NCBI RefSeq assembly: GCF_963921235.1
Contig: NC_086097.1
Location: 41,108,001-41,172,000, forward strand
DNA: 64,000 nt
Source of the DNA: Mobula hypostoma
Lineage: Eukaryota
Direction of reading: 5' to 3'
Shown here: in pieces, positions 1-47,620 of the stretch
Numbering within the stretch: position 1 is the stretch's first letter
Layout of the letters: each line of letters starts with the position of its first letter
The notes under the pieces: generated by a model
Told to the model about the DNA's origin: nothing
What the model saw: only the letters and a program-made list of their open reading frames with translations
The model's database searches: none
Program-made: the position numbers and the translations under genes

Positions 1-1887
1 GCATTGGTCATTTTAAAAAAAATCTGAAATGTGATTTTTAAAATTGTATTTCTTAAGTAAATAGACTGATGAAGAAATGTGTCGAATTGTGCTAAATTGT
101 CTTTTGGTCGGGGATACTTTGCAGTGGAATAGTGTAAAGAAAAGTTGCTTAGAATTACAGCTACGAACAATAGAACAAATATATTTTTATTGATGTGGAA
201 ATGTTGACTAAGAAGAACAAGGTCTGAGTAAATTCAGAGGTTGCTGCAGTACTTCATGTTCAGCAACTAATGACCTTGCATGTTGACTACATGACTCCAA
301 AACGAGATTGTTGAAAGATGTGTTGTGGGTGAAGCACTGCTTCAGTTCTCCCCCCGAGCATGAAGGAAATTTTGGTAGATGGTCCTGCTAATTCTGAAGT
401 GATTTGCTGGAGAAGAACCAATGTGGGACTTCAAGTTTGTCTAGTGCCAGAAATGAATCTACATCTCGTTGTGAATTCAGCAAGAAAATCAGATTGTTGC
501 AATGTGTGGCCTTGGGTAGGTGTGGTTGATGGTCAATACAAGACACAGTATGTTAACAGAAAGCTCAATTTTTGTAAAAGTAAAATCATTAAGTGCCTCT
601 TGTAAAGTTATTATGCTTTTTATGAAGTGCACTCTTCAAAGAGTTTATGGCAGCCTTTCTCATATTAATTGGTAAATTAGAGGGGATAAAATTCTAGGGG
701 AGGATCATGTTACAGGAGTTTGTACACAAGGAAGGTCACATATAGATCAAAAATGACATGAACAACCTTTAATGCCATACTTATTCAGCAGATCTTCCCA
801 GAGAATTCTTAAATTCACGTATGATACATCACTGCAGCAATGTTATCAATTAGGATGAGGGATGCACTTGTGTAAATAAGTACTGCTGGCTCTTTTAGAT
901 GTGTGAGGTGTTGCTGCATTTTCATGGCACAAACTCATTGCCAAACAGATTGTGAAGGGATACCTTGTCAAAAAAAATCAAGAAAACTTTTCTATGTTTG
1001 AAATTACCTGAGTCTTCATTCCTCTCGCATGGTTCAGCGGTATCATTTGACACAACATATTTCTGTACAGCTGCTCCAGTGTACTGATGTTGTTACAGAT
1101 AGACTGTGGCGCTCAAGAAATATATGGAGTGTCTGGACATTTTTGTGATCTGCCTCCAGCACTTTGGCTGCATCACTGTAATTGTCAAACAGGGAAATGT
1201 TCTTCCTCAGTAACATTTCACAAATCTTTCTGCTTGTGTATAGGTCTAACACACAACAGCACAAGTATTAATTAACCATCAACAGAGAAAAAAATTATAA
1301 ACATTTTAGAGAAATTTCATAACATTGATAATAGCATTTGGTTGCATCTTTTAATGTCAGCAGTATCTCAGTTAATAAAACTCCAGCCTTTTGAGGTGAC
1401 AGTTTTAACCCACTGCAATGACTTATCTATATAAAAACGTTAATTTGTCTTAGATGTTTGCACTTAACAAACATTTTGATCATTAATTGAGGGATGGGGG
1501 AAAAAGAGGATGAGAGGGAGGGTTGGTGAAGAGATGGTGTGAGACAACAATAGCACCATACTGTAGAATGCCAGATTTAAAATTATTGATTGAGAATATA
1601 ATTGAAACATTATCAACCTGCTGCTTCTTACAGGAGACAGCTTCACACTTTGCAATCCTTGCATGAAGCAGTGTTTCCTAATTTCTGCTGCCCAATTTGA
1701 GTGCTGCAGGTTTTTCGTAATTCTATACAATAAGAAATGTCCCATCAGTGAGGAATCAATATCATTCTGTAGGTCCATTGTGATATTCTGTGTCACTGGA
1801 GTAGGAACATGATATCTAAAGTGAGGAGTCCTCTGGCTTCCAAAGCACAGATCCATGGTTAATGTTCTATTTGGGCTTTTATTCGTA

Positions 1888-2921
1888 AAGAGGGCCTTTT
1901 CTAGTTGGCTGCCGGTGACTAGTGGTGTTCCTCAGGGATCAGTATTGGGGCCGCTACCTTTCACATTGCTTGTCAATGATTTAGATAATGGAATTGATGG
2001 CTTTGTGGCAAAGTTTGCAGATGATATGAAGAGAGGTGGAGGGGTAGGTAGTGTTGAGGAAGCAATGTGATTACAGTAGGACTCGGACAAATTGGAAGAA
2101 ACAGCAGAAAAGTGGCAGATGAAATACAGTGTTGGGAATTGTACAACAACGCATTTTAATAAAAGGAACAATAGTGCGGACTATTGTTTAAATGGGGAGA
2201 AGGTTCAAACATCAGAGGTGCAGAGGGAACTGGGAGTCCTCGTGCAAGACTCCCAGAAGGTTAATTTACAGGTTGAGTCTGTGGTAAAGAAGGCAAATGG
2301 AGTGTTGGCATTTATTTCAAGGGGAGTAGAATGTAAAAGCAAGGAGATAATGCTGAAGGCTATAAGACTCTAGTCAGGCTGCACTTGAAGTATTGTCAAC
2401 AGTTTTTGGCTCCATAGCTCAGAAAGGATATGTTGTCATTGGACAGAGTCCAGAGAAGGTTCACGAGGATGATCCTGGGAATGAAGGGGTTAACATGTGA
2501 GGCGCATTTGGCAGCTTTGCATCTGTACTCACTGGAATTTAGAAGAATGTGGGGGGTGGAGGTATCTCATTGAAACCTACCGAATGTTGAAAGGACTAGA
2601 TAGGGTGGATGTGGAGAGGATGTTTCCTGTGGTGCGAGTATCCAGAACTAGTGGGCACAGCCTCAAAATTTCGAAAAGAGGTAAGGAGAATTTTTTTTAG
2701 CCAGAGGGTGGTGAATCTGCCACACACTGCATTGGAGGCCCAGTCAGTGCATATATTTAACGCGGAAGTTGATCTTTTCCTGATCGGTCAGAACATCAAA
2801 GGAAATGGCGAGAAGGCAGGTGTATGGGGTTGAGTGGGATCCAGGATCAGTCATGATGGAATAATGGAGCAGACTCGATGGGCTGAATGGACTAATTCTG
2901 CTCCTATCTCTTATGGTCTTA
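1888..2921 (+). mobile_element. CR1-clade LINE, 5'-truncated, degraded RT C-terminus and 3' UTR
   Basis: Frames read WLPVTSGVPQGSVLGPL...VAKFADD and KWQMKYSVGNC; 3' end AATGGACTAATTCTGCTCCTATCTCTTATGGTCTT is shared with other copies in the window. Confidence 0.9.
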
Positions 2922-3040
2922 AATGCTGTATTAAAAATTGTAAATTAAGTGCAGTTACCTATGTAAGTTTTTTTTTAACTGGGCAGGTCTCCAAATCTAA
3001 GTTATAAAGAAGGCATTGATTAGTAACAGCTGGTGCAGCA

Positions 3041-3327
3041 GGGGCAGCACAGTAGCGTTGTGTTTAGCACAAGACTTCATAGTACAGGTGACCTGTGTTG
3101 AATTCCCACCGCTGCCTGTGAAGAGATATGTATGTTCTCCCTGTGTCTGCATGGTTTTTCTCCAGGTGCTGCAGTTCCCTCCCAAAGTCCAAAGACATAC
3201 CAGTTGATACGTTAATTGGTCACTGTAAATTGTCCCGTGATTACACTAGCGGTAAATCAGGGAATTGCTGGGTAACGTGGCTCAACGTGCCGGAGGGGCC
3301 TACTCCACACTGTATCTCCAAAAAAAA
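3041..3327 (+). mobile_element. tRNA-derived V-SINE (HE1-like)
   Basis: tRNA-like head with degenerate A/B boxes, V-domain-like core TCTCCCTGTGTCTGCATGGTTTTTCTCCAGGTGCT...CCAAAGA and GTTAATTGGTCACTGTAAATTGTCCC, A-rich tail; paralogs at 13087, 14020 and 27940. Confidence 0.8.
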
Positions 3328-3374
3328 GTGCTCCTGAAAAGGCCACTACCCTGTATCTCAGCCTGCGATGTTGT

Positions 3375-4330
3375 TCAAATGGAAATTTATCATCAAAGTA
3401 CATATATGTCACTATATACAACCCTGAGATTCATTTTCTTGCAGGCATACTCAAATCCATAATGGAATAGTATTCATAGTAGAATCAATGAAAGACCGAA
3501 ACCGGGCGTTCAGCCAGGGTAGAAAAGACATCAAACTGTGCAAGTACAAAAAGAAAGAAAGAATAATAAAGGAATAAACAATAAATATTGAGAACATGAG
3601 ATAAAGAGTCCATGGGTTGTGGGAACATTTCAAAGATGGGGCAAGTGAAGATGAGTGAAGTTAGCCCCTTTGGTTCAAGAGCCTGATTGTTGAGAAGAAG
3701 CAACTGTTTCTGAACCTGGTGTTGTGAGTCCTGAGGTTCCTGGATCTTCTTCCTGATGAGAGCATGAATCCAGGATCAGTGAAAAGAGAGTGTGACGTGG
3801 GTGATGGGGGTCACTGATGATGGATACTGCTTTCCTGTGATAATGCTCTTTGTAGATGTGCTCAATTGTGGAAAGGGCTTTACCAAGGATTAACTGGGCC
3901 ACATCTGTTACTTTGTGTAGGGTTTCCCGTTCAAGGCCACTGGTGTGTCCATACCAGGTTGTCATGCAATATGCTCTCCACCACACATCTGTAGAAGTTT
4001 GTCAAGGTTTAGATGTCATGCTGAACCTTCACAAATCCCTTAGGAAGTAGAGAAGCTGTTGTGCTTTCTTTGTAATTGCACTTATGTGCCGGGCACAGGA
4101 CAAGTCCTCAGAAATAATAACCCTGAGGAATTTAAAGTTGCTGACGCTCTGCGCTCTGATCCTGTGATGAGGATTGACTCATGGACCTCTGGTTTCCTTC
4201 TCCTGGAGTCAATAACCAGCTCTTTGGTCCTGCTGACATTGAGTAAGCGGTTTTTTTTTGGCACCACTCAGCTAGATGTTCATTCTCCCTCATGTATGCT
4301 GATCCATGGCCACCTTTGATTTGGCCTACA
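3375..4330 (-). mobile_element. Rex1/Babar-like LINE 3' fragment
   Basis: Minus frames LNVSRTKELVIDSRRRK and AYCMTTWYG...LHKVTDVAQLILGKALSTIEHIY match the Rex1-type RT C-terminus seen in other copies. Confidence 0.8.
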
Positions 4331-9637: not shown

Positions 9638-10137
9638 TAACACAAAAGAGATTCTGCAGATGCTGAAAATCCAGAGTGACACATACAAATGCTGGAGGAA
9701 TTTCGCAGTGTCTGTGGGGAAAAATGAAGAGATCCTTCATCAACACAGGGAAGGAAAGGGAAGCTGTCAGAATAAGAAGATTGGGGGAGGGTAACGAGTA
9801 CAAGCTGGAAGGTGATAGGTGAAGTCAAATGAGGAGGATGGTAGGTGGGTGGAGGATGGAGGACTATGTGAGAAGCTTGCAGGTGATTGGTGGAAAACCT
9901 GAAGGGCTGATGGAAGCGGAGAGCGGACCATGGGAGAAAGGAAAGGAGCAGGGCCACTGGGGGTGGTGAGGTGGTGGTGACAGGCAGGCGAGGAGAAAAG
10001 AAGAGTTTAGAGGGGAGCTAGAATGGGGAATGGAAAAGGACAGATTGAGGATGTCATGTTAGGGGCTACTCAAAGGGAATATGAAGTGTTGCTCTTCCAA
10101 TCTGAGAGTGGCCTTATTGTTACAGTAAAGGAGAGTG
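9638..10137 (-). mobile_element. Penelope-like element 3' part, degraded
   Basis: Collinear with 23734-24412: same tail, purine-rich UTR (on +) and remnant LLYCNNKATLRLEEQHFIF; hammerhead partly deleted. Confidence 0.8.
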
Positions 10138-16158: not shown

Positions 16159-16835
16159 GAGGGTTAAACTCACCTCAACATGATGTTTTTTATAGTTAGG
16201 GTTGCCAACTTTCTCACTCCCAAATAAGGGACAAAAGTAGCAGTCAGATCCTGATGAAGGGTCCCGGCCCGAAACGTCGACTGTACCTCTTCCTGTAGAT
16301 GCTGCCTGGCCTGCTGTGTTCACCAGCATTTTTTGTGTGTGTTGGCGGGATGCTTGTGTTTACCCCGAGAAAGACTACCATGACTATGAAGCCTTGCGCG
16401 GGCACCTGTGTGCACATGCATGACGTGCGCATATGTGACGTGCTCATGCACGTACGTGCCGATTTTTTTTCCACATATCAGTTTTGGCTTAACCTTCCCG
16501 ACTACACTGTACATGCATTATTTCTACTTTATATAGGCTGTGTATTTAACTTATCATTCCTGCTTTTACTATATGTCAGAGTTGTTTTAGGTGTTATGTG
16601 TTATTTGGTATGATTTGGTAGGTTATTTTTTGAGTCTGGGAACGCTTAAAAATTTTTCCCATATAAATTAATGGTAATTGCTTCTTCGCTTCATGCCACT
16701 TCGGCACGAGAGGTTTCATAGGAACATTCTACTTTGGCGGGAAAAATATGGGACAAGGGCTGTCTGGTATAGGACAAACCAATTTAGACCAATATACCAG
16801 ATGTCCCGGCTAATACAGGACAGTTGGCAACCCTA
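16159..16835. mobile_element. Second hAT-type element nested in the first
   Basis: 8-bp direct repeat TGTTCAAG at 16151-16158 and 16836-16843; ends GAGGGTT...AACCCTA; perfect 14-bp inverted pair TAGGGTTGCCAACT (16197-16210) / AGTTGGCAACCCTA (16822-16835). Confidence 0.75.
16249..16284 (+). ncRNA. Minimal type I hammerhead motif in a short PLE repeat (repeat extends to about 16343)
   Basis: CTGATGA 16251-16257, extra A, helix II GGGT/GCCC, GAAAC-GTC 16271-16278. Core intact; helix I reduced to 2 adjacent bp by 5' truncation. Confidence 0.75.
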
Positions 16836-17898: not shown

Positions 17899-19500
17899 AG
17901 AGTCATACAGCACTACAGCACAGAAACAGGCCCTTCAGCTAGCGTACAGTAGTTCCTGCTGAACTGTTATTCTGCTTAATCTCATCAACCTGCACTTCAA
18001 ACATAGCTCCACAAACCACTCCCATCCATGTACTTATCCAAACTTCTCTTAAATGTTGCAATCAAGCCTTCATTCACCACCTTTGCTGGGAACTCATTCC
18101 ACACTTGTACCATGCTCTGAGTAAAGAAAGTTCCCCTCAAGTTCCCCTTAAATATTTCACCTTTCACCCTTAACTGATGACCTTTAGTACTAGTTTCACA
18201 CAACCTGCTTGCATTTACCCTGAGTGGGTCAGCAATTTTAAATTCCTTGGCATTCTCATTTCAGAGGGTCTGTCCTGGGTCCATCATGTAAGTGCCATTT
18301 CAAAGAAAACAAAGCAATGCCTTTACTTTACTTAGAAGCTTGCTAAGATTTGGCATATCATCTAAAACTTTAACAAACTTATATAGATGTGCAGTGGACA
18401 GTATACCGACTAGGTGCATCATGGCCTGGTATGGAAACACCAATCGCCTTGAACGGAATAGCCTACAAAAAGTAATGAATATGGCCCAGTCCATTACAGG
18501 TGAAGCCCTCCCCAATATTTAGCGCATCTACAAGGAGCGCTGTTACAGGAAAATAGCGTCCATCATCAAGGATCCCAACCATACAGGCTATGTTCCCACC
18601 GCTGCTATCAGGAAGGACGTACAGGAGCTTCAGGACCCCCACAGTCAGGTTCAGGAATGGTTATTACCCCTCAACCATCAGACTCTTGAACCAGTGGAGA
18701 TAACTTCACTTGCCCCAAAACTGAACCATTCTCACAACCTATGGATTCACTTTCTAGGACTCTTCATCTCATATTTTCAATATTTTTGCTTATTTGTTTA
18801 CTATTACTATTTTGTTTCTTTTTTTAATTTTTGCATTTGCACCGCTTATTGTATTTTGTACATTGGTTGTTTGTCCATCTTGTTGTGTATGGTTTTTCAC
18901 TGATTCTATTGTGTTTCTTGTATTTACTGGGAATGCCCACAAGAAAATGAGTCAGGGTAGTATATGCTGACATGTATGCACTTCGATAATGAATTTACTT
19001 TGACCTTTATCTATACATACACTACATAGGTACACTATCTATCTATATCTCTCAGAATTTTTTTCATCTATATCAAATCTCCCATTATTCTCCCATGCTC
19101 CAGGGATAAAGTCCTAACCTATTCAAACTTTCCCAATAACTCAGATCCTCAAGTCCCAGCAACATCCTTTTAAATTTTCTCTGTACACTTTTAATCTCAT
19201 TGATATATCTTCTGTGACTAAAACTGCACAAGTAAACCACATTTGGTCTCACCAATGTCTATACAACCTCAACATATCAATGCTCAACGTATCAGTACTT
19301 TAACTTATGAAGACCAAGGTTCCAAAAGATCTAGTTATGGCTCTCCCTATGACATCACTCTCAAGGAATTAGGGTTCTGTATTCTGAGATCCCTTTGTTA
19401 TACCACACCCCTCAGTGCCCCAACATTCACTGTGCAAGTTCCACCCTGGTTTGTCCGTACAATGTGCAATCTCACACTTGTCTGCATTAAACTCCATCTG
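17899..19500 (-). mobile_element. CR1-clade LINE 3' fragment split by a Rex1 insertion
   Basis: TKGHQLRVKGEIFKGNLRGTFFTQSMVQVWNEFP at 17997-18203; CR1 homology resumes at about 19010. Confidence 0.75.
18222..19006 (+). mobile_element. Rex1/Babar-like LINE 3' fragment
   Basis: LRSLLRFGISSKTLTNLYRCAVDSIPTRCIMAWYGN; family 3' UTR ending ATAATGAATTTACTTTGAC. Confidence 0.85.
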
Positions 19501-20702: not shown

Positions 20703-21015
20703 ACTCCTGTTCTTGGCAAATGCGAATTCCCTCTGAGAAATCGCTCAGGTCCTGATAACTTTATGACTGAAGAAAATCCTCCTTGGCTACCTTCTACTGA
20801 CAATAATTTTAAATCTTCAACTTTTGTTTATCCACCCTTGTGCGTAGAGATAGTCAAACTGTTTTCTTCGGCTTTTGGTGAACTAACAGAAGTTGAAGAT
20901 TTAAAATTATTGCCTGTGGAAGAATGCGAAGGAGAATGTTATTCAGTCAGGGAGTTATCAGGACCTGAGAGATTTCTGAGACTGAATTAGAATTAGAATT
21001 GCCAAGAACAGGAGT
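20703..21015. repeat. Long inverted repeat / foldback (MITE-like)
   Basis: Arms of about 125-130 bp (20703-20828 and 20885-21015) with a roughly 55-bp spacer; terminal ACTCCTGTTCTTGGCAA / TTGCCAAGAACAGGAGT is perfect. No clear TSD. Confidence 0.9.
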
Positions 21016-21058
21016 GTTGAGAACATAGTGTAGAAAGGTTCAGCCATTCTTACTCGGT

Positions 21059-21194
21059 GGTCCTGACGAAGGGTGTCAGCCTGAAACGTCCACTGTATCT
21101 CTTCCTAGAGATGCTGCCTGGCCTGCTGCGTCCACCAGCAACTTTTATGTGTGTTGCTTGAAATTCCAGCATCTGCAGATTTCCTCGTGTTTGC
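21059..21194 (+). mobile_element. Short PLE 3' repeat with hammerhead core
   Basis: CTGACGA 21063-21069, AGG/CCT helix II, GAAACGTC 21083-21090 (first helix I pair mismatched), full family tail. Confidence 0.88.
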
Positions 21195-23079
21195 CTGACT
21201 AGATGGTAGAACAGATTCTGTACTACCTTCTCCTGATCCTATATCTCATCATTTTATGAGAATGGATCATGGTGCAGGAAACTGCATTGCAAAAAAGGTT
21301 CACCATGGGATTCTGGAAAAGTGATGGTGAAGCTCTAAGAAAGAGCAATAGCTATCATTAATTTTATTTTTATCCAGGCAGTAAATAATATTGGAGTTGT
21401 ACATTAAATATTGGTGAGGAGTACTGTTTTAAGGAATTCTAGCCTAATCTTGTTGCGGATTACCAGGCAGTCAAGCCACCAATTCAGTCGCTCTCTGAGG
21501 TGAAGGGAGAAGGTGGTGGTATTGTAACAGAGAGGAGAACGTACGTGAAAAGAGTTAGCTAACACTGCTGTCATGATGAGAATGTTGAATGTGAGAACTG
21601 GGATTGGTCAACACTAATCAATCACAGTGATCCAATCGTTTTTGCATGTGATTATAGATCTGGAGCAGAGAGCTAGGCCATTTGGCCCAGCTGATCTCTA
21701 GCCATGTGTAAACACTAGATAAACTGGCTACTAGTCTCCATAATTCCCTCTCCTACCCACACTACGCCTCTGATCTTTACTGTCTCCCATCTGTCTGACT
21801 ATCTCCCTCAATGCCATCTGCTTCAACTATTCGACCTGCAATTAAATGCCTTGTTCTCTCTGATTTTCCGTTTTTTGTGAGTTGTTTTGTATTTGGTATT
21901 CACCCCCCTCGCAAAATAATTTGTCTACATGTAGCCCATCGAAGACTTCCTCTTTTCGAGGACCTCCGTCGGGCTCCTTGCTGACCTTGTCCATCCCATA
22001 GGAAAGTGGTCCGTGTTTTACAACGCTTTAGGTGGCTGTTTGCATGTGACTTCTGGAAATCTGTTTTGTGTGCTCAGTATGCTGACGGGTGCAACTGATC
22101 CAGAGTGACCAAATAAGTCAAATTCAGTTTTTATAACATCGAATTCTGGAAGCTTTATCACTGCTTTGGGGATTGAGTTCTGTATATCCAGTTATTTTCT
22201 GAAGCAAACTATAAACCTTAGTGATGGATTAAAGGAAAAACTGTGTGAAGCTGTTTTTACTTGTTCTGTTACTATGGTAACTATTTTGCCATGAGGTGCT
22301 AACAGCTGTTTAATGATAGATTCTCAAATAGATTCTTCATTGCTGTATTACATATTAACCTTTATCCCGGCATTGGCCTGTTTCGTAAATTACTATGCCT
22401 GTGGCTCTGTATTGATCCATATTTAGCATTGCTGAGTTCTCAACAATTAATAAAGCTTATTTGTGTAGTATTTTCTAGATAAACATCATGTAAAATACAT
22501 TCTATGCAAGAGTTAGCTCATTCGTTATTCTCTGTCATTGTGGACTTTGTACTATAGCCTGAAACCCACTTGCATTCATACAGTTGTGTAGATTCAGTCT
22601 TCGTCCTATTTAAACTTGCTTCATGAATATTCATTGATTGTGCAAGTAATACATCTTGACTGCTCTACATTGATTTCTACAGAACACTTGTCAGATGTGT
22701 TTTGAACTGCCTAGCCTCGGTACTTTTAAAAATGGAATGTGATGTCAATACCCATCACAACACAAAATCTTACAGAGTAGCTTCTATTAAAATAATGTCA
22801 AGATTCCAGCTGTACTTATTATTTGATCTTTTTACATGAACACACCAAAATATTCTCCCCTAGCCAGTTGTGCTAAACTAGCTATAAAGTTGCTTCAGTA
22901 TGTTATACATGGCTGCTGATATTCACTCCCCTTCTACCCTTGTTCATTGCCTCCCGCCATGTTTTCTGATGGTCAGGAAGCTCCCTTAATAGTCATTTCC
23001 CTTTTCAGCAGAATGCTTTCTTCAGCAAGCATGCTTTCTCAAATGCTGAGGAATCTGATCTCTAAGCTTTTATTGCTAT

Positions 23080-23415: not shown

Positions 23416-23791
23416 ATATGCGAACATGTGTTTGTATGTGCAAATATGTTTGTTTATGTTTATGCTTTCCATTAGCACAGGTGCATTACAGGCTGTGAGT
23501 TTAAACCCCTACTCTGCTCACTTTATACTTATTCCTGTGCGGCTAAGCACAGCTCCAATACCGTATTTAAGTTTGCCAATGACAGAGCTGTCATCAGCAG
23601 AATCAAAGAAGGTGGCGAGTCAGCATATAGGAGGGAGTCTGAAAATCTGGCTGAGTGGTGCCATGACAATGTCATCAAGACCAAGCAGCTGATTACTGAC
23701 TTCAGGAGGAGAAAACCAGAGGTCTAGGAGCCTCACACATCAAAGTTGCTGGTGAACGCAGCAGGCCAGGCAGCATCTATAGGAAGAAGCG

Positions 23792-23829
23792 CAGTCGACG
23801 TTTCAGGCCGAGACCCTTCGTCAGGACTA
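23792..23829 (-). ncRNA. Minimal type I hammerhead ribozyme, best-preserved copy
   Basis: Minus strand UAGUC-CUGACGA-AGG-GUCUCGG-CCU-GAAAC-GUC|GACUG: helix I UAGUC/GACUG, helix II AGG/CCU, both conserved boxes, palindromic ACGU in place of helix III. Confidence 0.88.
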
Positions 23830-24121
23830 ACTGAAGGAAGAGTGAGTAAGGGATTTGAAAGCTGGAGGGGGAGGGGGAGATGCAAAATGATAGGAGAAGA
23901 CAGGAGGGGGAGGGATGGAGCCAAGAGCTGGACAGGTGATAGGCAGAAGGGGATACGAGAGGATCATGGGACAGGAGGTCCGGGAAGAAAGACGGGGGGG
24001 GGGTGACCCAGAGGATGGGCAAGAGGTATATTCAGAGGGACAGAGGGAGAAAAAGGAGAGAGAGAGAAAGAATGTGTGCATTAAAAAGAGTAACAGATGG
24101 GGTACGAGGGGGAGGTGGGGC

Positions 24122-24412
24122 CTAGCGGAAGTTAGAGAAGTCAATGTTCATGCCATCAGGTTGGAGGCTACCCATACGGAATATAAGGTGTTGTTCCTCC
24201 AACCTGAGTGTGGCTTCATCTTTACAGTAGAGGAGGCCGTGGATAGACATGTCAGAATGGGAATGGGATGTGGAATTAAAATGTGTGGCCACTGGGAGAT
24301 CCTGCTTTCTCTGGCGGACAGAGCGTAGATGTTCAGCAAAGCGGTCTCCCAGTCTGCGTCGGGTCTCACCAATATATAAAAGGCCACATCGGGAGCACCG
24401 GACGCAGTATAT
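24122..24412 (-). pseudogene. PLE GIY-YIG endonuclease domain, 96-aa open frame without a start codon (absent from the ORF track)
   Basis: Manual translation: IYCVRCSRCGLLYIGETRRRLGDRFAEHLRSVRQRKQDLPVATHFNSTSHSHSDMSIHGLLYCKDEATLRLEEQHLIFRMGSLQPDGMNIDFSNFR*. Shows IY...YIG, CxxC with downstream His residues, and the R, E and N positions typical of PLE GIY-YIG domains. Confidence 0.92.
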
Positions 24413-25020
24413 CTATCCTTATTGGAGGGATCACAGGTGGAGAGGGTCAGCAACTTTAAATTCCTCAGTGTTATTATTTCAGAGGATGTGTCCTTGGCGT
24501 ATGTGCAATTACAAAGAAAGCATGGCAGCTCTTGTTTAGAAATTTACAAAGATTCGGCATGATATCTAAAACTTTTAACAAACTTCTATAGATATGTGGT
24601 GGTAAGTATATTGACTGGCTGTATCATGTGGAAACACTAATGCCCTTAAACAGAAAATCCTACAAAATCTGGTGGATACAGCTCAGTCCATCACAGGTAA
24701 AGCCCTTCCCACCATCGAGCACATCTACATAGAGTGGTGTTGCAGAAAAGCATCATCCATCATCAGGGACCCCTGCGACCCAGGTCATGCTCTCTTCTCA
24801 CTGTTGCCATCAGGAAGAAGGTACAGAAGCCTCAAGATTCACTCTACCAGGTTCAGGAACAGTTATTACCCCTCAACCATCAGGCTCCTGAACCAGAGGG
24901 GATAACTTCACTCAACTGTTCTCACAATCTATGTACTCACTTTCAAGGACTCTTCATCTCATGTTCTCAATATTTATTGCTTATTGATTTATCGTTATAT
25001 TTATTATCATTATATTTGTT

Positions 25021-25739: not shown

Positions 25740-27870
25740 GGAGATGACGAAGTAGATTGATGAAGGCAGGGCAATAGACATTGTCTACAAACGTACCTGG
25801 ACTTTACTAAGTTGATGGATAAAGTGTCTGGCGGTAGAATAGTTGAGGTGAGGGCATGTGAAATCCAAAATGAGTTGGCTAATTAATTCCCAACTGGGCG
25901 TGGTGGTAGGAGGCAAAGGATGATGATGGAAGAATGCTTTACTCATTGAAAATAGTGATATACCATAGGGATTGGTGCTGGGACCCTTATTGTTCGTGAT
26001 ATATATTAATGGCTGATTTAATTGTAAGAAGAATAATTTGTAGGTTTGTGAATGATGTGAAAATTTGTGATTTTGTGGGTAGCTAGGAAGGTTGTCCAGG
26101 GCTACAACAGGTTATAGGTCAGATGGAGAGGCGGGCAGTTTTGCAGATAGAATTTAGTCTCAACAATTGTCAGATGTTGCATTTTGGGAAGTTCAATAGA
26201 GGTTGGACATATACTATAAATAGGGCACTGAGGAATGTTTGTAAACTGAAGAACTTTTGGGTTCAGTCCATAGTTCCCTGTAAGAGGCAACACAATAGGA
26301 AGAGTAGTGAAAAAGGCATATTGCATGCTTGCCTTCAAAGATTAGGGAATGGAATATGTTACCACTTTACAAAACACTGGTTAGATGGCACATCTGTGTG
26401 GTTGGGTTTGCCAAACTGTACGTAGCACATGATTACACTAAAAAGAATGTAGAAGAGATTCACTGGGTTGCTGCTCTGATTGGAATTTTGGGGTGAGTCT
26501 GAATGGGGCTTTTTCAACCATATAAGATCCTGAAGGTGCTTGACAGGATAGATTTGATCACAAACAAGAGAAAATCTGCAGATGCTGGAAATCCTAGCAA
26601 TCCTTTGGAAGGACCAAAGGATCTTGGCCTGAAACATCGACTGTACTCTTTTCCATGGATGCCGCCTGGTCTGCTGAGTTCTTCCAGGATAGATTTGAGA
26701 TGTTTTCACTGGTAGGAAGTCACAAAATGTGGGGCATTACAACAGAATTAGGGCCAGTCTCTTAAAAAGGAGAAGCATATATGTTTCTTCTCTAAGAGTG
26801 ATGTGAATCTCTGGAATTCTCTGCCCCCAAGGGTGATGAAGGCCTGATCATTAAATATTGTTAAGGTGCAGATGGATGCAGAGAAATTGAAACACAAGAT
26901 GAAGTCCTAATGAAGCGTTTTGACTGAAAAATCGACTGCTTTTCCTCTCCAAAGATGCTGCCTGACCTGTTGAGTTTCTCCAGCATTCTGTGTTTGTTGT
27001 CTCAGATGCAGAGAAACTTTGGGGCTTATAGAGCCGTTAATGGAATGGTCAAGGAATTAGCTGGTAGAATTTGAAGTATTTTGAAAGATGTGATGTGTTC
27101 CACTTTAGTAGAAAAAATTACAAAAGCAAGACTATTTTTTAAATAGTAAGAGATTGGAAGTTGCTGGTGCTAAGAGAGGCCTCATTTTCTTTGAAGCAGA
27201 AAAATAATGTGCAATAACAGTGAGCAATTAAGATATCAAGTTGGCCTTTATTCTGAGATTACTGTACAAGTGTAAAGATACTTTTACTGTAATTATATAG
27301 AGACCCATTGAGATTAGCTCGAGAAAAATGGAAGGTGTTTTCATTACAATGTACATAATTGTTGCAGAGCTTGACAGGGTAAATGTGACATTGATGTTTC
27401 CCCAGTGGTCTATTGGGAATCGCAGACCATGGCCTCAAAAACAAAGTGGCCATTCAAAACAGAGGAAGGAAAATATCTCTACTCAAACAAAGGTAATCTT
27501 TGGATTTTTTTTTATCTAAGAGAACTTTGAAGACTCTGTCGCTGACTTTATTCAGGACAGTGATTGATTGATGGTAGGAAATCCTTCTCCTTAGCAGAAG
27601 AGTTTAAAACCAGAGAAGGTAGTTTATGGTAAGATTTGGAGGGGATCTGAGAAAGAATTTGTTCACTTGACAGATAATTGGGATCATCTGTGAGTGTGGT
27701 TGAGGTGGTTGAGGCAGCAACTCACACATTTAAGTGTCCAGACGAGCACACGGCACAGAGGGCTATGGGTCAAATCTTGCTGAATAGATTTAATAAATAG
27801 ATGGATACATATGGTTGGCGTGGATGTGAAGGGGTGTGGCTAAAAGGCCTGTTTCTGTACATGACTGACT
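25740..27870 (+). mobile_element. Cluster of old CR1 fragments with two inserted PLE repeats (about 26558-26687 and 26903-26999)
   Basis: Degenerate CR1 motifs (ATACCATAGGGATTGGTGCTGGGACCCTTATTGTTC; CQMLHFGKFN) and PLE tails GCCTGAAACATCGACTG and AGTCCTAATGAAG...ATCGACTG. Confidence 0.7.
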
Positions 27871-28185: not shown

Positions 28186-29767
28186 GTTTTTTTTTTCATT
28201 TGCTGTTAATCACAGCTATTTAGGTTTGTGGCATTTATGAGAAATACTATATTTATTTCTTTCTCACAAATGCTACAAACGTCTGCCTTGATTACATGAA
28301 CACAAAATTTACAACCTGCATAACATATGAGAAAGCCATTACCTGTAAGATACCAAAGATAAGAAATTTATTGCTCAATCAGTGTTCAGATCATCTGGTA
28401 ATCCATGCAAAAATGAACTCATAGGTAGAAACCAAGGGCAGAGAGATTGGGGTTAACCTTTGCTGGTGTATAAACACATTGCTTGGCTGGTGGCAAATTA
28501 TAGCCCTGCAAGAAGATCATAAAACTGATGGAAGATGTGCAGCTTTTAGTGAGGATTATCCTCAAAATAATGTGTTACTTTGTGGCCTGCCAAGGTCACA
28601 GTGCGAGTCACCCTGATTTATCACACTGCCACTATGCCACTGGATGGCAATCAGAGAAGGGCGTCAGCCCTTGAAGTCACACCCCCCCCCCCCATACCCA
28701 TTGCAGATGCACGTCAGGCTCTCTCAACTGGAATGGACAAGAGAATGACCAAAGAGGATCTAGAATTTCTGAAAAAGAAATTGAAGTGTTGGAGAATGAT
28801 CATCTTTGGGAGAGAGAAACCATGGCTGAGGTGTGATGCAAAAAGAAAATACCATCGCCTCACTGAAAATCTCATCAACCTAATTAATATATCTTTTTAA
28901 TGCTGATAATTTCCCAAATTCTATAAATGAATGCAAACAATAAAAAAATTATTCACTTCATGCCCTCTATTGGAGCAGAAACAGCTAGGAGTGGAGGAAG
29001 TCCTGCTGGATGGGAAGGGACTTCACATATACAGTCCCTCACCAGTCAAGAAGGACGGGTCTTCCTCAGGGACAGAAAGACAACTGAGGAACCCATTGAA
29101 TTAACTCCTATGTAATTGCACATTCTCTAAAGCACACTTTGTCAGTTTTCCCAAAATCTGAGTACTCGGGAAGCAGTGTGAGTGTTCTAATTTATAAGAA
29201 CTCGGCAGGTGAAGTGTAGTGTGTGTAAACATTGAACTCGATGGGTGGCGCTCTCTCCTTCCAGGATCTTGACGTCCAATTCGTGTTAAGAAGATTTTCA
29301 AACAGGCATTCCCTGATGATTGAAGTGTGCATCCTTTGCCAGGAAAACTTCCAACATGGCAACTTGTCTCTTGACTGGAAGTGCCTAGTCCAATTTCACA
29401 ACTGCTGCAATTTGCTGGAGAGTAGCAGACAAGCAATCTCACATCTTCCAGAGGATTGCTGGCTTCCCAGCATGCAGGCTGCACATGCAATGACTTGTGA
29501 TTGGCAGGTTTCAACTTAAATCAAAAGGATCCGCACACTCCTCACCCCACTGCCCGCCCAGACTGACTTTATGCAGTTACTGCTCGCATCCTGTTTGCAG
29601 TCATGATCTCTTGAATGAGGTGTGGGGGCTACCTGGCATGATAGTGTAGTTACTGACTCCAGTTATCAGTGAGGAGGTTGCAGATGGACATAAATGAAGC
29701 CCTAAATTGGCTCCAGGTGTTAACTGCCTTTAAAAACATGAGTTGCTGAAAATCTCGAGGAATATAG

Positions 29768-29940
29768 ACAAAATGCTGGATGAAGTTAGAAGCTCAGGTA
29801 GCATTTATGGAGAGGAATAAGCAGTTGATGTTTCGGGCTGAGATCTCAACCTGATGAACAGCTTTGGGCCCAAAATGTCAACTGTTTATTCCTCTTCGTA
29901 GATGCTGCCTGACCTGCTGAGTTCCTTCAGCATATTGTGT
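29768..29940. mobile_element. Inverted pair of PLE 3' repeats
   Basis: Minus-oriented tail 29768-29845 abuts a plus-oriented copy starting CCTGATGA (29850); the arms are mutually complementary. Confidence 0.85.
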
Positions 29941-30439
29941 GAGCTAAGTTTATAATTCACAGCCTGGTTTTAAGTAGTCCTTTGAAGAAGTTGTGATTCA
30001 TCCCCTTTGTAGTCTCTGCAACCGAAGAGCAACACGATTAGTTCTGGCTGCCCTCTACAAACACACTAATCAGGCAGCAGCAAGTGTGTGTGTGCTTCCT
30101 GCTCTGTGCGTTCTCCACACATCCCCATTTCTATACCTAGTTATGGGTATTAACCTACTTAGACCTCATTTGCCTCAGGTTTTCTCATTACTTTCTAAGA
30201 CTAAATAATAATTCATCTCATTTTAAAGTATTTTATCCATATTCATTCCCTACTTAGTTTAATATCACTGATAAGTTTGCATTTGAAGCTATTGAAGCAG
30301 ATTAGAAGGACTGGTCAGGCCAACGCTGATAGTTTGGGCCTCTGCAGCTGGACTTCATTATCGGAAGATCACTGTCAGTGCAGCTTGGTATTAACATCTT
30401 GCTGGTAATGAACGAGGATGTATGTTTAGTTCATTACTC

Positions 30440-31755: not shown

Positions 31756-32768
31756 CAGAATCAGGATTCGTATCACCAGCACGTGATGTAATATTTGTTA
31801 ACTTAGTAGCAGCAGTTCAATGCAATACAGAATATAAAAGAAAAAAATAAAATAATAATAAGTATGTAAATCTTATTCAGTATTCCTTATACGGTATACA
31901 TATATTGAATAGATTAAAAATCATGCAAAAAACAGAAATACTATATATTAAAAAAAAGTGAGGTAGTGTCCAAAGGTTCAATGTCTATTTAGGAATTTGA
32001 TAGCAGAGGGAAAGAAGCTGTTCCTGAATCGCTGAGTGTGTGGCTTCAGGCTTCTGTACCTCCTACCTGATGGTAACAATGAGAAAAGGGCATGCCCTGG
32101 GTGCTGTCTTTTTGAGACACTGCTCCTTGAAGATGTCCTGGGTATTTTGTAGGCTAGTACCTAAGATGGAGCCAACTAAATTTGCAACCCTCTGCAGCTT
32201 CTTTCGCTCCTGTGCAGTAGCCACCCCCCCCCCACCCCCGTACCAGGCAGTGATGCAGCCTGTCAGAATGCTCTCCACGGTACATCTATAGAAGTTTTTG
32301 AGTGTATTTGTTGGCATACCAAATCTCTTCAAACTTCTAATAAAGTATAGCCGCTGTCTTGCCTTCTTTATAACTGCATCAATATGTTGGGACCAGGTTA
32401 GATCCTCAGAGATCTTGACAGCCAGGAACTTAAAACTGCTCACTCTCTCCTCTTCTGATCCCTTTCTGAGGATTGGTATGTGTTCCTTCATCTTACCCTT
32501 CCGGAAGTCCACAATCAGCTCTTTTATCTTACTGACATTGAGTGCCAGCTTGTTGCTGTGACACCACTCCATTAGTTGGCATATCTCATGCCCGTACGCC
32601 CTCTCATCACCACCTGAGATTCTACCAACAACGGTTGGATCGTCAACAAATTTATAGATAGTATTTGAGCTATGCCTAGCCACACAGTCATGGGTATAGA
32701 GAGAGTAGAACATTGGGCTAAGCACACACCCCTGAGGTGCACTAGTGTTGATCGTCAGCACGGAGGAC
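31756..32768 (-). mobile_element. Rex1/Babar-like LINE, 5'-truncated, with a long open RT frame (32063-32821)
   Basis: APQGCVLSPMFYSLYTHDC...YKFVDDPTVVGRI...LNVSKIKELIVDFRK...KKARQRLYFIRSLKRF...VESILTGCITAWYG. Confidence 0.93.
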
Positions 32769-34121: not shown

Positions 34122-34475
34122 ACATAAATGTGAGAAAGTTTGCAGATGCTGTAAATCCAAACCAACACGCAAAATGCTGGAGCAACTGAACACCTCAGGC
34201 AGCATCAATGGAGAGGAATAGACAGTCAATGTTTCAGGCTGAAACTATTCATCAGGGTTGGAAAGGAAGGGGGAAAAAGCCAGAATAAGAAGGTGGATTG
34301 GGGGGAGGGTGTACAAGCTGGCAGGTGATAGATAAGACCAGGTGAGGGGGAAGGGGTTGAAATTAGAAGCTAGGAGATGGGTGGAAGCGGTAAAGAGCTG
34401 AAGAAGGAAGAAGCTGATAGGAGAGGAGAATGAACCATGGGAGAAAGGGAAGGAGGAGGGTCACCAGAGGGAGAT
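34122..34475 (-). mobile_element. PLE 3' UTR and tail, older subfamily, degenerate hammerhead
   Basis: Minus strand CCCTGATGAATAGTTTCAGCCTGAAACATTGACTG, plus the family tail and UTR. Confidence 0.82.
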
Positions 34476-36713: not shown

Positions 36714-37560
36714 GGCCTTCATAAATCAATGTCTTAAGTGCAGGAGTTGGGATATTATGTTGAAGTTGTGTAAGACGTTGGTGAGGCCTAATTTGGAGTA
36801 CTGTGTGCAGTTCTGGTCACATACTTGCAGGAAAGATATCAATAAGATTAAAAGAGTAAGGAGAAAATTTTAAGGACTTGAGTTATAGGGAAAGATTGAA
36901 TCAATTAGTACTTTATTTCCTGGAAATAAAGCCCAGAACACCCAATAGTTGTATAAGACACTGAAAATTTACAAGGATGTTGCCACGTCTGGAGAACCTG
37001 AGTTATAAGGAATGATTGAATAGGTTAGAACTTCATTCATTGGAATGGAGAAACTTGAGAGGAGATTTGATAGAGGTGTTCAAAATTATGAAGGGTAAAA
37101 TAGAATAAATGCAAGCAGGCTTTTTCCACTGAGACACGAGGAAATCTGCAGATGCTGGAATTTCAAGCAACACACACAAAAGTTGCTGGTGAACGCAGCA
37201 GGCCAGGCAGCATCTCTAGGAAGAGGGACAGTCTTGCTTCCTGGCCTGCTTTTTCCACTGAGGTTGGGCAAGACCAGAACTTGAAGTCTTATGTTAAGAG
37301 TGAAAGGTGTAATATTTAAGGGGTACCTGAGGGTGGGGGGGCTTTGAGAGGGTTGTGAGAGTGTGGAATGAGTCGCTAGAGGAAGTGGTAGATGCAGGTT
37401 CAACTTAAACATAAGAGGGAAAATTGGATAAATACATGGATGGGAGGAGAATGGAGGAATATCGTTCAGGTACAACCTGATAGGACTAGGAAGAATAGTT
37501 CAGCATGGATTAGAAGGGCCAAAAAGCCTTTTTTGGGCTGTAATACTCTGAGTCTATGAT
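36714..37560 (+). mobile_element. CR1-clade LINE 3' fragment
   Basis: GTGAGGCCTAATTTGGAGTACTGTGTGCAGTTCTGGTCA encodes VRPNLEYCVQFWS; CR1-type 3' end. Confidence 0.8.
37134..37247 (-). mobile_element. PLE 3' repeat starting at the hammerhead cleavage site, with 15-bp TSD
   Basis: Family tail 37134-37233, short inverted piece 37234-37247, direct repeat GCTTTTTCCACTGAG at 37119-37133 and 37248-37262. Confidence 0.9.
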
Positions 37561-42176: not shown

Positions 42177-42624
42177 CAATGGCCTAATTCTGCTCCTATG
42201 TCTTATGCCCCAATTGTATTATGGATGGTCTGTCCAGCCAGCACAGCACTGGCCTGGACTTCTATAGAGTGTCAGACTGGATTTTTGAGCTCCAGTCTCT
42301 GGATGAACCCTACTGACATATTGACAGCCAAGAGTAGCCTGGGTTCAGCTCCTCAAGTTTCCTATGCTGTAACTTCATAGAAGTCAGCATATTTCTGTCT
42401 GAGGATTTGGAACATGAACTGACATCGTGTGAATTGGCCTCCTTGTCAATACTTTTTTTTAAGTAATTGTGAAACCAAATCATTAGAACTTGCAAAGCTG
42501 CATGTTATTTTCTCCTTTTTCTTCATGGAAGTAAAAGAACAACACAACCTACTGACCTGGCCTGTCCTTTTCAAATTTACTGTCTTAGCTGGTAAACCCA
42601 GGTAACTGTGGCTCATTATTGGCT

Positions 42625-42830
42625 ACACACACAAAATGCTGGTAGAGCACAGCAGGCCAGGCAGCATCCATAGGAAGAGATACAGTCGACGCTTCAGGCC
42701 AAGACCCTTCGTCAGGTCTCAGCCCGAAAAGTCAACTGCACCTCTTCCTATAGATGCTGCCTGGCCTGCTGCGTTCACCAGCATTTTGTGTGTGTTACTT
42801 GAATTTCCAGCTTCTGCAGATTTTCTCGTG
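42625..42830. mobile_element. Inverted pair of PLE 3' repeats joined at the hammerhead
   Basis: Minus copy 42625-42716 (CTGACGAAGGGTCTTGGCCTGAAGCGTCGACTG) fused to a plus copy starting GGTCTCAGCCCGAAAAGTCAACTG. Confidence 0.9.
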
Positions 42831-45769: not shown

Positions 45770-47620
45770 GGACAGGCCATTCAGCCCATGATGCTGATTT
45801 ATACTAACTGGCCTCTTCCTGTGCATCACCCATATTACTCCATTTTTTTCATATTCAAATGTCTTCTTGAAGGTCTCTTAAACTCCACCAAACTGCCTGC
45901 TTCCATGACCATCAACAGTAATGTATTCCAGGCACTGACCACTCTGTGTATATAAAAAAAATACCTGCCCCTCATGTTAGTCTTTAAACTTCTCTCCCCC
46001 CCCCACCCTTAAAAATTCCTCTGGTATTTGATACTTCTATCCTGTGGAAAAGATTCTGACTCTATGTCTCTCAGAATTTAAAAATATGTCTATCAGACCT
46101 CTACTCAGCCTTGAAGTTCCAGGGTGAATAATGTAAGTTTGACCAACCTTTCCTTATAATTTATGTTGTCTAATCCAGCAAGTCCTCAAGTCCTGGTAAA
46201 CACTATTACATCCTTTCTACACTCTCCACATACCTATGATGGGGTAACCAAAAGATCTCACAATACTCCAAGTGTATCTGACTCAAGTTTTAAACAACAT
46301 CACCATGACTTCCTCATTCTTATATTCCCATTGGCGCACCTGCCAATGAAAGCAAACATACTGTGTATCTCATCATCCACTGACAGTCACTTTCAGGGAA
46401 CTATGGACTTAGACACTACGATTCCCTCTATATTTCAATGTTATTAAGGGGCCTAATGTTAACTGTGAACATATATCCTTCATTTGACTTCCCTAAGTGC
46501 ATCACCTCATGTTTGCCCAGATTAAACTCCATCGGCTACTTTTATGCCCATATCTGTAATTGATCTATATCCCACTGCACTCTTTGATGGCCCTTTACAC
46601 CACCCATAACTCCAATAACCTTGCAACATGCACAAAATGCTGGAAGAACTCGGCAGGCCAGGCAGCATCTGTGGAAAAGAATACAGTCAACGTTTTGGGC
46701 CGAGACCCTTCAGCAGGATGGGTTTGTGATTGGATTACTCCAATAACCTTGTTTCATGTGCAGATTTGCTAATTCACCTATCTACTTTTACTTTCAAGTC
46801 TTTGATGTATATAACCGAGGGCCTTGCGGAACACGAATGATCACGGCTTTCCAAAAGAGTAACAGCCTTCCATTTTTACTGTTTGTTTTCTATGAGGAAG
46901 CCAGTTCTGAATCCAAGCTTGCAAGGGATCCAGGGTGAATTGCATCTTTCTTCTGAATCAACCTACCATGAGGGACCTCATCAAATGCCTTATTAAAGTT
47001 CATGTAGATGATACCTACTGCCTCACCTTCAGCAAGACCCCTTGTCACCTCCTCAAAAAATTTGATGAAGTGTGTAAGGCATAACCTTCCCCCACACAAA
47101 GCCATTCTGACTGTCCCCAAGTGTGCCTTGGCCTTCCAAATGCACTTGAATCCTATCTGTAAGTATCATCTCCAATACTGTTACTACCATACATGAAGCT
47201 CACGGCCTATAATTATCTGGATTATCCCTATTTCCTTTCCCAAACAAAGGCACCACATTTGCAATTATTCTATTCTCTGGGACTTCTCATGTTGCTAGGG
47301 AGGACACAACGATCTTTGTCAAAGCCTCAACAATCTCCTCATTTGCTTCTGGGATTTATATCAGGATATATGCCATGGACTTGTTCATCTTAGTACTTTT
47401 CAGAAGACCCAGCACTACCTCCTCTTTAATCTCAAACTGTCTCAGCACATTAGCATGCCGACACTGCCTTCACTATCCTCCAAATCCTTCTCCTCAGTAA
47501 TTATTGACATAAAGTACTGATTTAGTACCTCAATCGCTTACTGTGACTCCAAGCACAAACTTCTCCTTTAACCCTGAGGAGGGATCAAACATCTTAGTGT
47601 TCTTCTTTTTCTTAATGTAA
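45770..47620 (-). mobile_element. Degraded CR1-clade LINE
   Basis: GRLCLTHFIKFFEEVTRGLAEGEAVGIIYMNFNKAFDEVPHGRLIQK at 46890-47120. Confidence 0.8.
46624..46736 (-). mobile_element. Short PLE repeat with mutated hammerhead and 15-bp TSD
   Basis: Minus strand TCCTGCTGAAGGGTCTCGGCCCAAAACGTTGACTG; direct repeat ACTCCAATAACCTTG at 46609-46623 and 46737-46751. Confidence 0.88.

Follow-up and report, generated by a model that had tools for sequence, protein, structure and literature searches.

Minimal type I hammerhead ribozymes were described in 2014 in the pseudo-LTRs of metazoan Penelope-like elements (PLEs), those of vertebrates included (PMC4209133); cartilaginous fish are absent from the species in Table S1 and Fig. 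S3 of that paper. Published minimal hammerheads cut weakly in vitro, as dimers (PMC4209133), and the ribozyme of a PLE from Anolis cut only with protein present, uncleaved RNA being the main template (PMC11167929). PLEs can carry an optional 30–40-bp tail at one end, and a CX2-5CxxC linker marks Neptune and Nematis and is absent in Penelope/Poseidon (PMC8557442); among sampled vertebrates, a preprint lists only Neptune and Poseidon PLEs (bioRxiv 10.64898/2026.07.22.740005). Non-LTR retrozymes, in turn, have been reported in one chondrichthyan genome (PMC7229834; bioRxiv 10.64898/2026.07.22.740005).

We analyzed a 64,000-nucleotide stretch of the genome of the ray Mobula hypostoma (the window), in which the original prediction had placed a PLE with a minimal hammerhead. 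The ray family resembles the PLEs of PMC4209133 in its CUGANGA box, the additional nucleotide that separates 9 from 10.1, GAAAN, a palindromic 15.2–16.2, an NUH triplet, and a short helix I; further, its motif lies 3' of GIY-YIG, and its copies are mostly solo copies from truncated elements. The hammerhead of an Acropora digitifera Neptune element, with a helix II that starts with GGGC, has a core identical to that of the ray motif (PMC4209133). Unlike the consensus in that paper, the focal copy has U at C11.1, and its 4-bp helix II is at the short end. With Neptune and Nematis (PMC8557442), the family shares a C-terminal GIY-YIG domain with CCHH residues, the CX2-5CxxC linker (in close relatives), a 30–40-bp tail, and inverted 5'-truncated arms; it differs in that its targets are not (TA)n microsatellites and that linker and reverse transcriptase (RT) lie outside the focal copy. 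As in PAc, the Anolis Poseidon element, the hammerhead sits upstream of two 3' end classes, which match two internal RT starts; in PAc, cutting and extension involve both strands, so that inverted arms such as those of the ray family would result, and the ORF starts at stem II (PMC11167929). Poseidon (PAc) is, unlike the relatives of the ray family, without the Cys linker. The family is also like animal non-LTR retrozymes, which are short repeats with type I hammerheads and are akin to the pseudo-LTRs of PLEs (PMC7229834; bioRxiv 10.64898/2026.07.22.740005), but these form head-to-tail tandem arrays with mostly canonical hammerheads, whereas the ray copies are dispersed or head-to-head and have a minimal core. 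The ray family itself was not found in the literature searched, Repbase, Dfam, and most subscription journals being outside its coverage, and the manta-genome preprint contains neither "PLE" nor "ribozyme" as a whole word. We conclude that the kind is already published and that the ray family is a real, well-supported but ordinary finding, in which the focal copy shows to which element a very abundant short repeat belongs.

The PLE insertion comprises 680 bp (23734–24413, minus strand) nested within an older LINE, so that the predicted span, 23734–24412, was almost exact and had to be refined only slightly by flank alignment and junction bases. One LINE paralogue copy at 4316–3649 aligns collinearly with both flanks, and contig joints from 23724/23732 to 24428/24429 in four public sequencing runs represent LINE paralogues without the PLE insert; any target duplication is 1–2 bp at most (T at 23733 and 24414). 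The interrupted host is an older non-LTR retrotransposon with an RT-like frame, of which alignment of the flanks placed the left piece at 23476–23733 (+) and the right piece at 24414–24950 (+), the latter ∼72–76% identical to copies at 18222, 4162, and 50540. Pfam gave no name for three frames of this LINE, a paralogous stretch at 32300–32539 (−) matches PF09004 (35.1 bits), and the Atlas lead consists of unnamed chordate clusters; the family is presumably Rex1/Babar.

Read along the minus strand, the insertion consists of a GIY-YIG endonuclease frame of 96 amino acids plus stop (24122–24412), a 292-nt UTR that is part of the pseudo-LTR and is 80% pyrimidine (23830–24121; weakly similar to the UTRs of older copies at 34260+ and 9725+), the hammerhead, and the pseudo-LTR downstream of the ribozyme (23734–23791), which ends at the shorter, tail-less 3' end class, +96 from C3. 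We compared the element with contigs from the four runs (X1, X5, X22, and X24), which are blind to RNA ends, strand, and level and for which no pile-ups of begins or ends were listed. The contigs matched to the element numbered 14,186, 6,583, 61,149, and 77,025 across the runs, which is not a copy number, and the PLE family is very abundant; no long contig from these runs spans the element. Loose ends before 23734 run on into the tail (136 contigs in X1 and 91 in X5), and in 30 contigs of run X22 a loose end past 24411 leads into the family's linker-side coding sequence. Because contigs extend past both 24411 and 23734, the focal copy is cut at both ends: it is a truncated, tail-less PLE 3' end, broken inside the GIY motif, without RT, start codon, or 3' tail. 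Its predicted youth agrees with the finding that 5,967 of the 14,186 X1 contigs are at least 95% alike and that four of the five CpG sites of the motif are kept, although we prefer to call it fairly young. We note that a branch-point-like sequence, a pyrimidine tract, and an AG lie immediately before helix I (23827–23850, minus strand), where the AG is a candidate splice site of a possible pseudo-LTR intron. X5 contig joints from 23828 to 24128–24246 were considered as splicing and set aside, as unknown letters lie between and older UTR types fit equally well.

The 96-amino acid stop-free frame that had been predicted as a GIY-YIG domain (24412–24122, minus strand) matched the Pfam GIY-YIG profile PF01541 with 23.5 bits against a cut-off of 22.6 (E 6.9e-5), a margin of 0.9 bit that counts against the PLE reading. 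The frame starts within the GIY motif and retains YIG, the CCHH residues, and R, H, E, and N; its Cys-6, Cys-9, His-44, and His-50 align to the conserved Cys-279, Cys-282, His-317, and His-323 of the Mobula hypostoma gene model P0001, from which it differs at five residues, and relatives share its terminal NFR. The first Met is residue 55, and the frame cannot make a nuclease on its own. A search of longer proteins gave 57 candidates, of which 23 reached significance, and the best five matches were ray gene models, namely P0001 (95% identity) and models from Hypanus sabinus (76–89% identity); these ray relatives are known as protein sequences, without DNA context. In P0001, P0004, and P0017, the RT motif YIDD, a thumb, and a CX4CxxC linker precede GIY-YIG. 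The RT (YIDD plus thumb) is likewise found upstream in other relatives and is absent from the focal copy; a CX3-4CxxC linker is present in seven of the eight relatives scanned, but the window copy itself lacks the linker region. The label "Neptune-type" is thus supported through the linker motif of the relatives but is not specific, as Nematis shares the linker; linker and the preprint's vertebrate sampling together make Neptune likely rather than Nematis.

Several ray and skate host gene models (P0024, P0003, P0022, P0023, and P0015) include translated element pieces, the host models with such pieces being a CoA synthase, a kinase-domain protein, neuromedin-U receptor 1, and ABHD14A. Ray gene models thus appear to have absorbed pieces of the element, possibly by exonization or through annotation error. 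The Hypanus model P0003 departs from the PLE frame straight after NFR, and contig loose ends indicate that other subfamilies read GT at the stop codon after NFR. Further, two young copies have an open frame through ribozyme and tail, at 21029–21202 (+) and 23733–23963 (−); when the frame that spans the ribozyme was used as a query, one host gene model was the sole match, and no PLE N terminus came up.

The predicted hammerhead, UAGUC-CUGACGA-AGG(GUCUCGG)CCU-GAAAC-GUC/GACUG, reads exactly so at 23829–23792 of the minus strand, where pattern, structural descriptor, and published consensus all place a minimal type I hammerhead (23792–23829). In the register of the motif, the 5' strand of helix I is 23829–23825 and its 3' strand 23796–23792; CUGACGA occupies 23824–23818, a bulged A 23817, helix II 23816–23805, GAAAC 23804–23800, and GUC 23799–23797, and cleavage is predicted to fall between 23797 and 23796. 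The window has three occurrences of the core pattern CUGANGA-N10-22-GAAACGUH, which was absent from 100 dinucleotide shuffles. When we applied the full descriptor (core, helix II, the 15.2–16.2 pair, and a helix I of at least 3 bp), one window site passed, at 23824 (−), and none did in 100 Markov-resampled windows. Rfam yielded no hammerhead family at E up to 1, which we attribute to models that need a closed helix III. As predicted, helix III here is the palindrome ACGU, which does not close in the monomer and forms a self-duplex of −1.7 kcal/mol. The prediction that helices I and II are both present stood, except that helix II drawn as three base pairs, AGG/CCU (−1.1 kcal/mol), is less stable than a bulged A followed by four base pairs, GGGU/GCCU (−2.3 kcal/mol); the latter is the published register, with an extra nucleotide between 9 and 10.1 (PMC4209133, Fig. 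S3). The motif fits the Cervera consensus for minimal hammerheads of the PLE kind (CUGANGAH, G10.1-C11.1, GAAAN, palindrome, NUH); the focal copy has the extra A, but U replaces the conserved C11.1, which leaves a G10.1-U11.1 wobble at the base of helix II. In the copy at 16246, which has C11.1, helix II reaches −3.9 kcal/mol.

Among the 19 window hits of the family, positions 11.1–12 read CG in 3, TG in 7, and CA in 5, while the remaining 4 have another reading or none, a set of states that has the form of a CpG-decay spectrum. C11.1 is found in the three hits with CG and in the metagenomic loci L001 and L004 described below. In the sequencing runs, C11.1 accounts for 21% of depth in X1, 21% in X5, 75% in X22, and 63% in X24. 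Because U11.1 is the majority state in X1 and X5 (∼79% of depth), the focal copy may have inherited it from its subfamily and not acquired it by decay. A scan of the metagenome contigs for the exact 31-nt motif gave no matches, and neither did a PDB sequence search with alignment.

Distant metagenomic relatives, with 44–50% protein identity, were used to ask how far the hammerhead is conserved. In two of six loci, the full motif follows the GIY-YIG stop, at 422 and 86 nt (null, 0 of 500). The more distant of the two, at 919–955 (+) of L001, is a minimal hammerhead 422 nt past the stop in which U3-A8 stands in place of C3-G8. No full motif was found in the other four, of which L003, L005, and L006 are degraded or partial and L002 ends early. 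The L002 contig contains an intact 1036-amino acid PLE-like ORF (251–3361, plus strand) with DKG, YLDD, a Cys linker, and GIY-YIG, and stops 5 nt past a CUGAAGA box. Because automatic alignments misplaced the helices, base pairs were counted in the register of the motif. In helix I, 14 of 15 cells pair across the window motif, L001, and L004; of the 10 cells compared with the window motif, 6 have double-sided changes, 1 a one-sided change, 2 are unchanged, and 1 is broken. In helix II, every cell pairs in L001 and L004. Such a compensatory pattern in helix I would be hard to obtain by chance, and covariation in these distant relatives, which amounts to three sequences placed in register by the motif, argues that selection has acted on the hammerhead in this family.

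With a profile made from eight copies in the window, we obtained 19 hits, representing 16 insertions, and none in five null sequences. Compared with the focal copy, 5 of 17 copies are 86–90% identical and 10 are 70–79% identical, the remaining 2 being too brief to judge. Two classes of 3' end, spaced by ∼35 nt, can be told apart: 6 of the 19 hits end at +89 to +96, 11 at +120 to +133, and 2 elsewhere. The difference is the PLE tail, and two such classes correspond to two internal RT start sites in PMC11167929. Target duplications of 9–15 bp flank 5 of the 15 insertions tested, and three head-to-head pairs have the tail on one arm, inverted and duplication-flanked arrangements of a sort described for PLEs (PMC3846280). 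All 19 hits are single or head-to-head, and the head-to-tail tandem units that define non-LTR retrozymes do not occur among them. Among the copies closest to the focal one, that at 21059–21192 (+; 89% identity) begins at helix I and is tailed, that at 16246–16342 (+; 87%) has kept C11.1 and is tail-less, and that at 37134–37250 (−; 90%), which has a 15-bp target duplication, starts at the predicted cut after a 13-nt inverted element piece and interrupts another repeat. The paired arrangements are at 42619–42828 (head-to-head, one arm tail-less and one tailed), 29741–29945 (older, 72% identity, arms tail-less and partly tailed), and 26568–26690 (a tail-only arm and a body arm within a 14-bp target duplication). 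Self-priming by fold-back of a single cDNA was considered for the pairs at 42619 and 29741 and rejected, because the arm starting inside helix II reaches further 3'. We also noted inverted tail-like pieces of ∼16–17 nt between target duplication and ribozyme at 26902–27019 (+) and 46621–46719 (−), which are very short inverted arms.

Two old copies reach further upstream. That at 34132–34475 (−) has ∼215 nt of older-type UTR, a decayed ribozyme, and a tail, and that at 9646–10133 (−) has a GIY-YIG remnant (tblastn E 1.8e-5 at 10118–10032), a UTR, a decayed ribozyme, and a tail, which points to a second, independent link from nuclease to short repeat. The short copies align to the PLE terminus, save for short inverted pieces of that terminus. 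The prediction that the focal copy links all short SINE-like repeats in the window therefore stands for the dispersed CUGA...GAAAC repeat but not for families D6 and D9, which match nothing in the element, and "SINE-like" is misleading, as the short copies bear the marks of PLE insertion, namely 3' ends of two classes, arms in inverted orientation, and target duplications of 9–15 bp. As the short repeat is tied to a PLE, it should be annotated as PLE and not as SINE.

Taken together, these observations make it very probable that the focal copy is a dead-on-arrival 3' end of a high-copy, endonuclease-positive PLE with a Neptune-type linker in the ray genome and that the short repeats are its sisters. 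From what is known of PLE biology, an intact element elsewhere would have supplied the RT-GIY-YIG protein, which would have nicked the target DNA, whereupon reverse transcription would have started within the RNA of the element, downstream of the hammerhead and at either of two sites that lie ∼35 nt from each other. Synthesis would then have stopped early, inside the nuclease coding region for the focal copy and near the ribozyme for most others, and the short repeats would have arisen alongside it in the same way, as sisters that stem from several subfamilies differing in age. The hammerhead of intact elements would probably cleave weakly, solely as a dimer or with the help of protein, and that of the focal copy is probably near-silent; insertion in this manner would not need hammerhead cleavage.

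Random truncation leaves one feature of the short copies unexplained, namely the sharp clustering of their 5' ends: 8 of 13 short insertions start 1–5 nt before C3 by script count (two more are near by eye), for which the binomial probability is 4e-9 against uniform truncation over 135 nt and 2e-6 over 60 nt. The cluster could mark an RNA 5' end or a splice junction, or it could stem from stalling of the RT at the pyrimidine tract; snap-back of the cDNA was rejected, being weak (−2.8 kcal/mol) and different from the helix I hairpin. The clustering raises the alternative that the short copies are a distinct non-autonomous unit whose 5' end is fixed at the 5' edge of the ribozyme, which we regard as unlikely on balance. 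Consistent with such a unit, the sequences upstream of the short copies are not UTR (alignment scores of at most 26, against at least 67 between two older UTRs; pyrimidine share of 0.37–0.48 versus 0.70–0.82 in the UTR), the start point has an AG after a pyrimidine tract, and in a Drosophila virilis PLE an intron ends at helix I (PMC4209133; PMC2377424). However, the short copies have no common exon-like sequence upstream, an identical cluster would arise if the RT stalled on entry to the 80% pyrimidine tract, three copies, the focal one among them, continue past the start point, and the sample is a single window. A more specific form, which we consider still less likely, is that RNA of the family starts exactly at the 5' strand of helix I, either as a short RNA or as an mRNA whose 5' end is set there by splicing or initiation, and that internal RT initiation 95–130 nt downstream then yields ribozyme-bounded mini-elements with a fixed 5' end. 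If this were true, the mini-elements would represent a kind of PLE derivative that is non-autonomous and differs from tandem retrozymes, and they would supply a very large natural dataset on PLE transcript starts and ribozyme cutting in vivo. The 5' ends of many copies could in any case serve to test PLE hammerhead cutting in vivo and RT stop sites.

That ribozyme cleavage sets where the template's 5' end lies in vivo, the short copies being fossils of cleaved RNA, is improbable. The copy at 37134–37250, with its clean 15-bp target duplication, begins where such a template would, but it is the only one of the 13 short insertions to start at the cut; the main cluster lies ∼30 nt upstream of the predicted cut, so the templates of those copies were uncleaved. 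Further, the Anolis PLE substrate is mainly uncleaved, and the RNA-seq results described for it have no ends at the cut (PMC11167929). Modeling favors an inactive fold for the focal motif: energy models that omit tertiary contacts put the active dimer at −11.5 kcal/mol, two folded monomers at −22.0, and the best dimer at −30.3. In the same energy model, the active dimer is less disfavored for L001 and L004 than for the focal motif.

It is highly improbable that the hammerhead-like motif is no ribozyme at all, that is, a chance match or a DNA- or protein-binding signal. The lack of an Rfam match could be read in this way, as could the folding of the 51-nt motif region, which is no better than that of shuffles (z −0.53) and has a minimum free energy structure that is not a hammerhead and that, in the monomer, pairs G5–G8 with the cleavage triplet. 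Against this, the null expectation for pattern and descriptor is zero, the relatives combine compensatory helix I changes with the swap of C3-G8 to U3-A8, and the published consensus that the motif fits has members that cleave weakly in vitro. Finally, the strong form of the original prediction, in which every short repeat of the window descends from the focal copy as a young parent with an active dimer ribozyme, is barely credible: the focal copy is the sole window copy to pass the full descriptor, no stop interrupts its nuclease frame, and five copies are close to it, but it is truncated at both ends (inside GIY on one side) without RT or start codon, 10 of 17 copies are only 70–79% identical, unrelated short repeats exist, and the modeled dimer energies disfavor activity. 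Given several age classes and tails (on 11 of 19 hits) that the focal copy does not have, it is a sibling and not the parent.

Two further repeats in the window are noted here. At 20719–20994, a 118-nt inverted repeat with a 40-nt spacer is 81% complementary, and its Rfam miRNA match is weak and at chance level. A second dispersed short repeat (D3/D6/D9), found at 2834–2922, 8588, 9444, 12143, 23327, 42168, and 54452, has no match to the PLE; it occurs at the 3' ends of longer LINE-like repeats and presumably resembles the CR1-type HER1 tail.
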